This document shows positions 24,001 to 27,000 of a stretch of DNA of 47,303 nucleotides, piece by piece. The DNA lies in IMG/VR virus record IMGVR_UViG_2728369105_000001, positions 1 through 47,303 of that record; one strand, 5' to 3'. Position 1 is the stretch's first letter, and the number at the start of each line of letters is the position of its first letter. The DNA is from a virus. Its lineage: Duplodnaviria; Heunggongvirae; Uroviricota; Caudoviricetes. A program made the position numbers.

Positions 24001-27000
24001 CTGGTTCAGCGTCCATTACTTTTTGGGCAACCTGATCGCGCAGGTCATCAATCACGCTTTGCACGCGTGATACCGCAACCGGCGTAAGTGCACAGTCGCG
24101 CTCAAGAATGTCCGGAAGTGTTTCAAGTACCATGACGACGGCTTTCGCCATCATTGAAAATTCACGTGCGACGTCTTCGGCGGGGATAAGTTGCTTGGTA
24201 TCTACTTCAAATTTCAACCGCTCGTTTTCTGCTTTCCAGTGAGCGAGGCGATCAGGGGGTGTCATCTCTTCAAGATTCGATGAGGAAACCGTCGGGATCA
24301 TTAATTCTGTCAGAATATCGGTGACAAGATACAACTTAAGTTTGCTGTTGCTTCCCTGGGCGGGACTGACATTTTTTAGCCTGGTAGCGACGGTCTGCCG
24401 GTGTACGCCAGTAATCCCGGCAAGCTGGTTGATATTGAGTTTTAAAGTAGCGATTTCCTGGTCCATGATGGTGAACACTTTTTATACGATTCGACATCAT
24501 TGAAAATCCGACATCTGGAAAATCAATAACCTGTGCACATGATGATGATGACTATGAAAAATGAAAACTAGCCGTTTTCCGCGAGTCCGCCGCCCCGTGG
24601 TAGGTCACCCCAACGGGAGGACCCTTAAATGATAATGGATATCACTTGCATGATTGTTACAGGCATTATCTGGGTTTCATCAGCGCGCATTATCTGTATG
24701 TGTAACGTTTGGTGCTGTATACCCTCTATCGAGGATGAAGCATTACCAGTCCATTAAGAGATGATTTGTCGATTAGTAGTTATCGAAGTATAAAAAAACC
24801 GCCCATAATGGCGGTCTTGGTCCTGCTGAAATCGAATGGAGGAGATTAACTCAAACCAACATCATTCAGTTTCTTGTTCATCCATTTTCTTCGCCATTTC
24901 AACAAAGTTAATAGATGGGAGGTTAACTGACTCAAGTCCTGCGTTCAAAAGTACCGTACTAACGAAAGCGCGAAGATATGGATAAGCGATTGCTGGAGCA
25001 TTAACCTTATGGAAACTGCCTTTCCAAAAATGTTCATCCAAAGGCTCATCGGATTCGAAGATGAAATCATGAACAAGCTTAAATTTAAAACCTCTCTCTG
25101 AGGTCAATAAAAAATCAAACTTAACACAAAATTCTGCATCGCTTTCGGGTACTAAGTGACTGGAATACGTGAAATTTATGCGATTGACAAGCTCATTTTC
25201 TTCTTGAGTTTTAGTAATGAAGAGCTCATCTACATTGTTATCTTTCAGCTGGAGATGCATGACTTACGCCGCCACTAAATGAGACAGCGCCCCTTGAGGC
25301 GCTGAGTTAGTATTTTTTGGGAAAAAGCTCAAGAGCTCATCATCCATTCTGAAAACTTCACATCGCCAGACCTGACCTTCGTCTCGCACAGTGTTTTCGT
25401 CAACACTACCTTCCATGTAGTAGGTTAGCTCTTGTGCAATTTCTGCCGTTTCTGAGGATTTGTCCATCACACCACATTTCTCAAGCGCAGACAAAAACTC
25501 CTCACGTGGCATCGTATCGATTAGAGCTAAAGCTGCTTCTAACCACGCTTTTTTATTCATATTGACCCCTTAGTGACAATATCATGCTGTATGGCACATC
25601 GTGTCGGTTCCTTCAGACACATGATTCTGCAATTTGGTATCCGAGCTCGCAATTGACCACGCCCAGAAGTGATAGCTTCTCTTCGTACCAACGCGTCAAG
25701 GTTAAGGTTCTCAAGAGCAAAATTCGCTACAAAGCAATCATTTTGTAAAGCTGTAGCATCTCGATAACCTTCTTGTTTCATCCGTTGTGCCAGACTGTCC
25801 CTGATCGTGTTGAAAATCTTCAAATCTTCAATCTCATCCAGATCAAGGTGAGTCTCAGTTCGTATCAATGATTTTAGCACAGCATAACTATGGTATTTGC
25901 GCTTACGTGCTCTTCCATCCCAAGAACGGAACCGAGCCCATTGTTCTGCATTAGCGATAGGATCTGTAAATCCATCGATGAAAAAGTATGCGCCGCTGCC
26001 TAACCAATCGTTATCTTCTTTACTAATTCTGTAGTTGCTAACCACAATCTCTTCTGCAGAACTAAGACTCGTTCCATGATATCCAGTCCACTCGGTGTAA
26101 GATTGAGAGTCTTCTTGTGAGTTCAAGGGATATCCGCCTTCCCAAATCGATTTGCCTGAAGAGCTTCTCGCGTGACGAGAATCTTACCTTTAAGCTAATC
26201 ACCAAAACAAGGTTTAGGTATAACTCTGTGGATAACCGTGACAGCGATAGCACTTTTTGTATAAAAAAAAACAAAAAATCGTTTTGTCAATGGTTGACTG
26301 TAGATTTAATCTTTTAATCATCTTCTGTCACCCAGAAAACTGTTTGATTGAGCAAAAAAAACAAAAAAATAACATTTAAAAACAATAGGTTGCAATTAAA
26401 ATACAAATTAATAAGCCAAAATCTCTTGTAAATAGTAAACAGAAGTGTGTTTTATTATAATTACAGTTCCAGAACAAACCTAATATATTGTTTAATAATA
26501 AATTATTAGCCTATCCACAATCTCGATATCGCTGAGTGTTACGGCGATATGGGTAGCTATGCTAAGTACATCTACCTAAGCCAATTTCTGCGCATCAGCC
26601 TACGCATTCACCACAATTTGACATTATCACCGGCACTCTTAGGATGCCTGCATTAATGCCTTAACTGGCCTGTTCTGCACCGGTATCAAACAGCGCCAGC
26701 GCTTCGGTCGCTTCCTGGATGGCCTTACGGGTCTTCGAGACAATCTCGCTTTCCGTGAAAACACGATCGAAAGAGTCTGCGAATAGCTCAGACTTCAGAT
26801 AGCTGTCGCCTACCCAGTCAATGGCCAGCTTGGCCGCTGCGGTGTCGTAGTTAACTTTCTTGATGATATCCAGGCGGATTTGCTCGGATGCGGTGATTTC
26901 TGACATGTCTTACCTCTGTGCGATGTGGGGAGCATTATCGAAGTCACTAACCAAGTGACTTCTGTAATGCCATTAAAAAAGCCACCCTAAAGTGACTTTT

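Follow-up and report, generated by a model that had tools for sequence, protein, structure and literature searches.

What does a compact three-gene operon, set between the lysis genes and a cos-like site, do for the prophage that carries it? We asked this of IMG/VR virus record IMGVR_UViG_2728369105_000001, analysed over its positions 1 to 47,303 (47,303 nucleotides; hereafter the window), which is a lambdoid prophage adjoining a tRNA-Arg(CCT) gene. Working from the sequence alone, a first-pass annotation had read three minus-strand genes in this slot as a toxin–antitoxin–chaperone (TAC) operon with a toxin of the ADP-ribosyltransferase (ART) kind, and had likened it to the antiphage system CmdTAC. 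Our analysis points the same way: a Klebsiella-type lambdoid prophage carries, as a moron, what is in all likelihood an abortive-infection system of the CmdTAC type. The operon is a divergent representative of the known CmdTAC family rather than a system of a new kind.

Three coupled genes match a validated CmdTAC operon

All three genes lie on the minus strand and were delimited from open reading frames (ORFs) and sequence. Gene 1, the cmdT-like toxin gene (25557..26126), encodes 189 amino acids (aa) from a TTG start; gene 2, the cmdA-like antitoxin gene (25264..25560), encodes 98 aa with an isoelectric point (pI) of 4.4; and gene 3, the cmdC-like gene for a SecB-type chaperone (24862..25260), encodes 132 aa. 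The coupling described in the first-pass annotation holds, as ORFs, sequence and terminator scan agree. The stop codon of gene 1 and the start codon of gene 2 overlap in an ATGA, genes 2 and 3 are spaced by 3 nt (TAAGTCATG), and the operon ends at its own intrinsic-terminator-like element (24795..24818, minus strand), a GC-rich hairpin running from 24818 to 24795 as AAGACCGCC-ATTATG-GGCGGTTTT and followed by a T run.

No in-frame start other than the TTG at 26126 would retain the first conserved strand of the gene 1 product, and this TTG is kept in a diverged, 80%-identical DNA copy of the operon in another phage. The RefSeq annotation of Escherichia coli EC31 contains the same three coding sequences, including the same 189-aa product, and identical proteins are encoded on 234-262 public contigs, most of them from Klebsiella pneumoniae. 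Against the 80%-identical copy, the ratio of nonsynonymous to synonymous substitution rates (dN/dS) was 0.10 (toxin), 0.27 (antitoxin) and 0.045 (chaperone), at a dS near 1; these ratios indicate purifying selection on all three genes. The EC31 annotation, the public contigs, the dN/dS values and the conserved TTG together argue that the operon does not consist of chance ORFs. The three genes are coupled and conserved as one unit.

We then compared the operon directly with characterised systems. Mets et al. (bioRxiv 10.1101/2024.02.24.581848) give WP_097333619.1, WP_053886482.1 and WP_053886483.1 as CmdT, CmdA and CmdC of the validated O112ab:H26 system, whose genes we located in E. coli FDAARGOS_1287 (NZ_CP070071; L174:2840-4159) through a weak DNA match of a related chaperone. 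The toxin is 39% identical to this CmdT over 171 aa (E 2e-44) and of equal length, and the chaperone is 48% identical to CmdC over 128 aa (E 1e-42), which bears out the suspected match to CmdTAC; similarity of the antitoxin to CmdA is limited to the first ~30 residues (E 0.14). The two operons have in common their gene order, their coupling, the sizes of their products (189/121/128 aa there, 189/98/132 aa here), the GYHGT and WLGxGAYFF motifs of the toxins, the antitoxin N-terminal pattern MNxxxWLExxLxxI...G with an Ala-Ala end, and a prophage-borne location. They differ in their surroundings, the O112ab:H26 operon having an integrase and P2-like genes as neighbours whereas ours occupies the lysis-cos slot of a Klebsiella-type lambdoid prophage. 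The antitoxin tail is also unrelated in sequence and 23 aa shorter here.

The ECOR22 CmdTAC, or PD-T4-9 (RCP66309-11.1, QOXH01000008:116077-117290; Vassallo et al. 2022 and 2024, PMC9519451, PMC11618068), likewise combines an ART toxin, a small antitoxin and a SecB-like chaperone in a prophage variable region. Its CmdA resembles our antitoxin in its two N-terminal helices, unstructured tail and -AA end (LAA there, VAA here), and Y41 of its CmdT corresponds to Y47 here by PADLOC-model offset and motif. Comparison with the ECOR22 clade was made through two proxies, L171 (PD-T4-9_A 6e-41) and L173 (7e-38), in place of the ECOR22 sequence itself; the proxy antitoxins end in YSLAA, as ECOR22 CmdA does, and the chaperone of this type is 35% identical to the one here. 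PADLOC screens of 30 candidate toxins had given weak matches before these two core PD-T4-9_A-type toxins were located. According to the published rule, a CmdTAC homologue starts with a gene homologous to CmdT, continues with another ORF and has a SecB-like gene in third place, the antitoxin sequence being excluded as too variable; our operon has this composition. The search rule of PMC11618068 was for DefenseFinder CmdT and CmdC models no more than two genes apart. HigBAC and MqsRAC (M. tuberculosis; E. coli NT1F31, C496_10) are alike in having a SecB-like chaperone and an antitoxin with a chaperone-addiction tail at its C-terminus, and in sensing phage through a structural protein that titrates the chaperone. 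Their toxins, however, are RNases without relationship to ARTs, and no relationship links the antitoxins either.

The toxin is predicted to adopt an ADP-ribosyltransferase fold

The resemblance of gene 1 to the H-Y-E class of ARTs had been noticed from a YHGT...AYFF pattern, which resolves into GYHGT at residues 15-19 and GAYFF at residues 45-49 of its product. The AlphaFold2 model of the toxin (mean predicted local distance difference test, pLDDT, 94.6) was searched against the PDB with Foldseek, and the top matches were all ART domains, among them PARP1 and, each at a probability of about 1, PARP2 (E 3e-4), exotoxin A (8.8e-4) and 1aer (6.6e-3); 1aer is also the comparator structure chosen for CmdT (PMC11618068). 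A family profile compared with PDB sequences aligned yHGT...G.GvYF to LYHGTT...GKGVYF of PARP10, so that His17 and Tyr47 of the toxin fall on the H and Y of the PARP10 H-Y-x motif; the PDB sequence-profile matches of the family end at residue ~46.

HMMER searches of 1.84 billion representative proteins returned 399 toxin relatives at E<=1e-3, nearly all of them 180-200 aa long. When 150 relatives were aligned, all had Y47 and 148 had H17, and the positions conserved at 90% or above include H17, G18, T19, W41, G43, G45, F48, F49, A60, W63, D95 and N165. Judged by its modelled structure and its similarity to the O112ab:H26 protein, the gene 1 product is an ART-fold protein homologous to validated CmdT. 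Pfam scores stayed below their cutoffs, at 15.5 vs 25.9 bits for Exotox-A_cataly (PF09009; residues 13-95 only) and 11.4 vs 26.7 for PARP, and the toxin therefore stands outside both families. A tblastn search of the toxin against the phage collection gave three weak matches, none informative. With diphtheria toxin, exotoxin A and the PARPs the toxin shares the fold and the His and first Tyr of the motif that binds nicotinamide adenine dinucleotide (NAD+); unlike in these H-Y-E ARTs, no conserved Glu is seen here, and the target would by homology be mRNA rather than eEF2 or other proteins.

A SecB-fold chaperone and an acidic antitoxin complete the operon

The C-terminal resemblance of the gene 3 product to SecB was confirmed by profiles and structure. 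Pfam SecB matched residues 64-125, the C-terminal half, at 27.5 bits (cutoff 26), and the PADLOC model PD-T4-9_C matched at full length (2.5e-34). We modelled antitoxin and chaperone as a fused single chain from a 15-row paired alignment (pLDDT 61; predicted template modelling score, pTM, 0.29), in which each of the four chaperone copies has four strands and two helices. The top 19 Foldseek matches of the modelled chaperone were all SecB (1fx3, 1ozb, 1qyn) or 5mtw, the M. tuberculosis SecB-like chaperone with a bound antitoxin peptide, with template modelling scores of 0.57-0.73 on the target. The structure searches suggested as a check on the first-pass annotation thus returned the ART fold for gene 1 and the SecB fold for gene 3, and the gene 3 product is a SecB-fold chaperone of the toxin–antitoxin kind, homologous to validated CmdC. 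We considered and rejected a housekeeping SecB: the best NCBIfam equivalog scored 28.2 bits vs a cutoff of 181, and the gene stands in a prophage operon, not in the yibN-grxC-secB-gpsA context. Its RefSeq name, 'protein-export chaperone SecB', is misleading as to function.

Gene 2 had been taken for the antitoxin from its position and acidity, and both hold: its product has a pI of 4.43, with 18 D+E vs 9 K+R. The fused model places helices at residues 3-16 and 19-28 and leaves residues 43-61 and 75-98 at pLDDT <50, and the protein ends in ...HLVAA. CmdA has an N-terminal helix pair, a long unstructured C-terminus and a terminal LAA read by ClpXP (PMC11618068), and in O112ab:H26 CmdA, changing the terminal AA to DD, or deleting clpX or clpP, removes toxicity (Mets et al., bioRxiv 10.1101/2024.02.24.581848). 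In position, acidity, N-terminal helices, low-confidence tail and C-terminal Ala-Ala, the gene 2 product has the CmdA layout. The sequence pattern of its first ~30 aa is common to O112ab:H26 CmdA and other loci, and its aromatic-rich, low-confidence tail is a candidate chaperone-addiction region.

Proposed mode of action

Homology to the two characterised systems (PMC11618068; bioRxiv 10.1101/2024.02.24.581848) suggests the following course. In the lysogen, toxin, antitoxin and chaperone would be joined in one complex. The antitoxin would aid folding of the toxin and neutralise it with its N-terminal helices, and its disordered tail would be held by the SecB-like tetramer, hiding the C-terminal Ala-Ala degron. 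Upon superinfection, an abundant structural protein of the incoming phage would be bound by the chaperone and titrate it off; ClpXP would then degrade the antitoxin via its AA end, and the freed toxin would use NAD+ to ADP-ribosylate single-stranded mRNA. Translation would halt and the infected cell would produce no phage. The operon is very probably an abortive-infection defence that halts translation through mRNA ADP-ribosylation.

Transcription of the operon can be outlined from its surroundings. An AT-rich leader 5' of the cassette genes (26127..26615, minus strand), recognised from the composition profile and sequence, is the presumed location of the promoter; we go no further than presuming it, because a sigma-70 promoter scan of the minus strand gave no consensus site ahead of the toxin gene. 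The leader contains TTGACA at ~26290, a canonical -10 element was not found in it, and between 26200 and 26650 its GC content is 0.27-0.33 with long T runs. The late lysis genes lie upstream of the operon and on its strand, so late antiterminated transcription would probably continue through it when the prophage itself grows lytically.

Weighing the evidence

Several observations count against a CmdTAC-type system. Neither alignment nor topology allowed a Glu, Asp or Gln to be assigned as the third residue of the H-Y-[E,D,Q] triad in the toxin. A topological comparison with YNEYIVY of PARP1 tentatively equates the Glu strand with PNCRIMC, which contains N165 and C166. An E/Q/D-rich family column at position 154 is Ser in this toxin and in its Klebsiella clade. 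The loop at this column, just before the PNCR strand, is shortened in the Klebsiella clade relative to other family members, by 4 residues when set against validated O112ab:H26 CmdT, and the acidic residues of that CmdT loop are missing from it. Identity of the toxin to the ECOR22-type proxies is about 25% (BLASTP E 1e-4; profile-comparison probability 94.9%), and its match to the PADLOC model PD-T4-9_A is weak and partial (1.8e-4). The gene 2 product has no match to the PADLOC antitoxin model (PD-T4-9 B), its tail is without sequence similarity to characterised CmdA tails, and the fused model, at pTM 0.29, is too poor to show the tail docking on the chaperone, its usable parts being the SecB fold and the antitoxin helices.

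Some of this also applies to the validated O112ab:H26 system. The PNCRI-strand positions equivalent to the canonical Glu are non-acidic across the whole HGT/WLGxGxYFF clade of toxins, the O112ab:H26 toxin included, and an acidic residue is conserved at position 150 in the clade of our toxin. The toxin identities, 39% vs about 25%, place the operon in the HGT/WLGxGxYFF clade together with O112ab:H26, sister to the ECOR22-type clade. A PADLOC run, which had been proposed as a check, came out mixed: model C matched strongly, model A weakly and in part, and model B not at all, and the automated PD-T4-9 call failed. It failed alike for O112ab:H26, whose CmdT scores 0.0072 on PD-T4-9_A, worse than our toxin, and whose CmdA matches no model. 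The weak toxin match therefore reflects a limit of model coverage, not non-membership, and the toxin and antitoxin models of PADLOC v2.0.0 miss the whole HGT/WLGxGxYFF CmdT clade, a validated member included. As for the unique antitoxin tail, it means that the trigger may differ and need not be a T4-like capsid protein.

The active-site differences bear on two alternatives. One is that the same architecture houses an ART with another substrate or specificity, be it a different RNA motif, structured RNA, DNA or protein. The loop between strands 145-150 and 166-171, shortened and stripped of its acidic residues relative to O112ab:H26 CmdT, would fit such a change, as would the modest identity to the validated toxin and the lower one to the ECOR22 type, and ART toxins of the same fold do act on proteins, DNA or structured RNA (PMC11618068). 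Yet the remaining catalytic core (H17, Y47, W63, D95, D130, N165) is conserved full-length with the validated mRNA-targeting CmdT and no substrate switches have been reported within the CmdT family, and we consider another substrate improbable. The other alternative is that the toxin has lost catalysis and that the operon survives as a remnant, either decaying or repurposed; in its favour one could cite the missing acidic third residue, the loop deletion in the Klebsiella clade and a related Brenneria locus with truncated antitoxin and chaperone ORFs. A dead toxin is nevertheless extremely unlikely, given the low dN/dS of toxin (0.10) and chaperone (0.045) relative to a copy at dS near 1, intact H17 and Y47, identical proteins on more than 230 contigs, and a canonical Glu position that is non-acidic clade-wide, even in the validated O112ab:H26 toxin.

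The operon could also be imagined as an addiction or stabilisation module that retains the prophage by killing cells that lose it, without a part in phage defence. A labile antitoxin with a stable toxin suits post-segregational killing, TAC systems were first studied outside phage defence (PMC11618068), and the cassette moves with prophages. An integrated prophage would gain little from such a module, however; the cassette occupies a slot of varied cargo, and both characterised CmdTACs, as well as two other TAC systems, are prophage-borne and protect against phages. We regard a pure addiction role as very unlikely.

A CmdTAC-type defence thus remains our preferred explanation, and within it the Klebsiella clade might, more tentatively, be functionally distinct. 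Its toxins could use another third catalytic residue or recognise another RNA motif than the GA dinucleotides of ECOR22 CmdT, which the shortened, acid-free loop beside the active-site strand makes possible, and the antitoxin tail and chaperone could have become attuned to a Klebsiella phage structural protein instead of T4 Gp23. We rate this distinctness as conceivable but doubtful.

What the identification adds

On more than 230 contigs, mostly of K. pneumoniae, public annotation calls two of the three products hypothetical and the third a 'protein-export chaperone SecB'; reading it as CmdTAC fills that gap and is relevant to predicting phage host range on Klebsiella lysogens. It also exposes a gap in detection, in that the PADLOC toxin models miss a CmdT clade with an experimentally validated member. 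With its shortened active-site loop and new antitoxin tail, the operon offers a natural variant for studying how specificity and sensing evolve in CmdTAC. Should the Klebsiella clade prove functionally distinct, it would be a defence determinant for K. pneumoniae phage therapy that current PADLOC toxin and antitoxin models do not see.

The operon is cargo between the lysis genes and cos

The late genes of the prophage run in the order holin, endolysin, spanin-like genes, lipoprotein, DUF2560, an AT-rich gap, the operon, its terminator, the cos-like site, and the small and then the large terminase gene. The cos-like cohesive-end site GGGCGGCGGACT (24584..24595, minus strand), which lies outside the operon, differs at 2 positions from the cos annotated in Escherichia phage LLS (GGGCGGCGCGCT) and is located between the small terminase gene and the operon terminator, where homologous phage records begin. 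Variable regions of temperate phages are a known location of CmdTAC systems, and the first-pass annotation had called the present slot a moron site. Homology breakpoints, base composition, varied cargo and a second occurrence agree with that description.

When 22500-28800 was compared by megablast with 50,697 phage records, 24657-26615 remained unmatched: terminase/cos homology of the mEp043-like kind ends at ~24656, and homology to lysis modules of Klebsiella phages begins at ~26615. These breakpoints on both flanks set the whole extent of the cargo cassette, some 2 kb, at 24657..26615, and the operon DNA alone had no match in the same 50,697 records. The GC content is 0.38-0.45 in the operon and 0.52-0.58 in its flanks. 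Related phages carry different small genes in the lysis-cos slot, and the 80%-identical copy, likewise flanked by lysis genes on one side and packaging genes on the other, comes from an unrelated phage whose genes include HNH and P27-type terminase. On these sequence comparisons, the cassette is horizontally mobile cargo, a moron between the lysis genes and cos. An Rfam scan of the cassette found no RNA family.

Among 5,426 complete E. coli genomes, the prophage was present in one, that of EC31 (L001, NZ_CP060987:1525283-1566984), at 99.6% identity. Megablast and blastn searches of these genomes with the operon and with loci L003 and L006 returned the EC31 copy or nothing, and a profile word-index search retrieved no member from E. 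coli. A single E. coli carrier of proteins otherwise typical of K. pneumoniae suggests that the EC31 prophage results from a recent cross-genus transfer.

Two neighbouring features were recorded in addition. The tRNA-Arg(CCT) gene (43783-43857, plus strand) adjoins an integrase-sized ORF (42400-43752, minus strand), an arrangement also found in E. coli EC31 that likely marks the prophage attachment site. Between the spanin-like genes and DUF2560, a 113-aa ORF (27049-27390, minus strand) has a lipoprotein-type signal (LAGLMIVGCS) and a GC content of ~0.42; RefSeq names it 'cell envelope integrity protein TolA', and it may be a second cargo gene of the late region.

Relatives of the operon in bacterial and viral genomes

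We surveyed 160 loci of toxin relatives, drawn from species genomes and IMG/VR viral contigs, with a few more reached through chaperone matches. A SecB-like gene lay within 1.5 kb downstream on the same strand for 102 of the 133 unique full-length toxins. Tightly packed middle ORFs, counted once each, ended in AA in 60 of 80 cases, and most of the others in another small aliphatic pair. Antitoxin N-termini across the family follow the common pattern ...L..AL..I..MS.EEF.......G, and the tails are not alignable.

Three groups stood out in the survey. In an enterobacterial subclade (L010-L012, L094-L100, L104-L108), the antitoxins end in -SF, -AF, -TF or -VF in place of -AA, and the chaperones have diverged further, matching the chaperone profile at E ~1e-9; in this subclade the antitoxin may be turned over without a ClpXP Ala-Ala degron. 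In roughly one of four toxin relatives, no SecB-like gene was detected within 1.5 kb downstream (L057, L059, L063, L064, L066-L068, L074-L077, L080-L085, L109, L110, L112-L117), with examples among cyanobacteria, clostridia, Pseudomonas and some viral contigs; these toxins may work with different partners, or the contig may break off too soon. Finally, the closest toxin relative from a named species, at 57% identity, is that of Brenneria alni (L009:5977-7049), where a 58-aa middle ORF without an AA end and a 90-aa chaperone ORF, both truncated, give the locus the look of a decaying copy.

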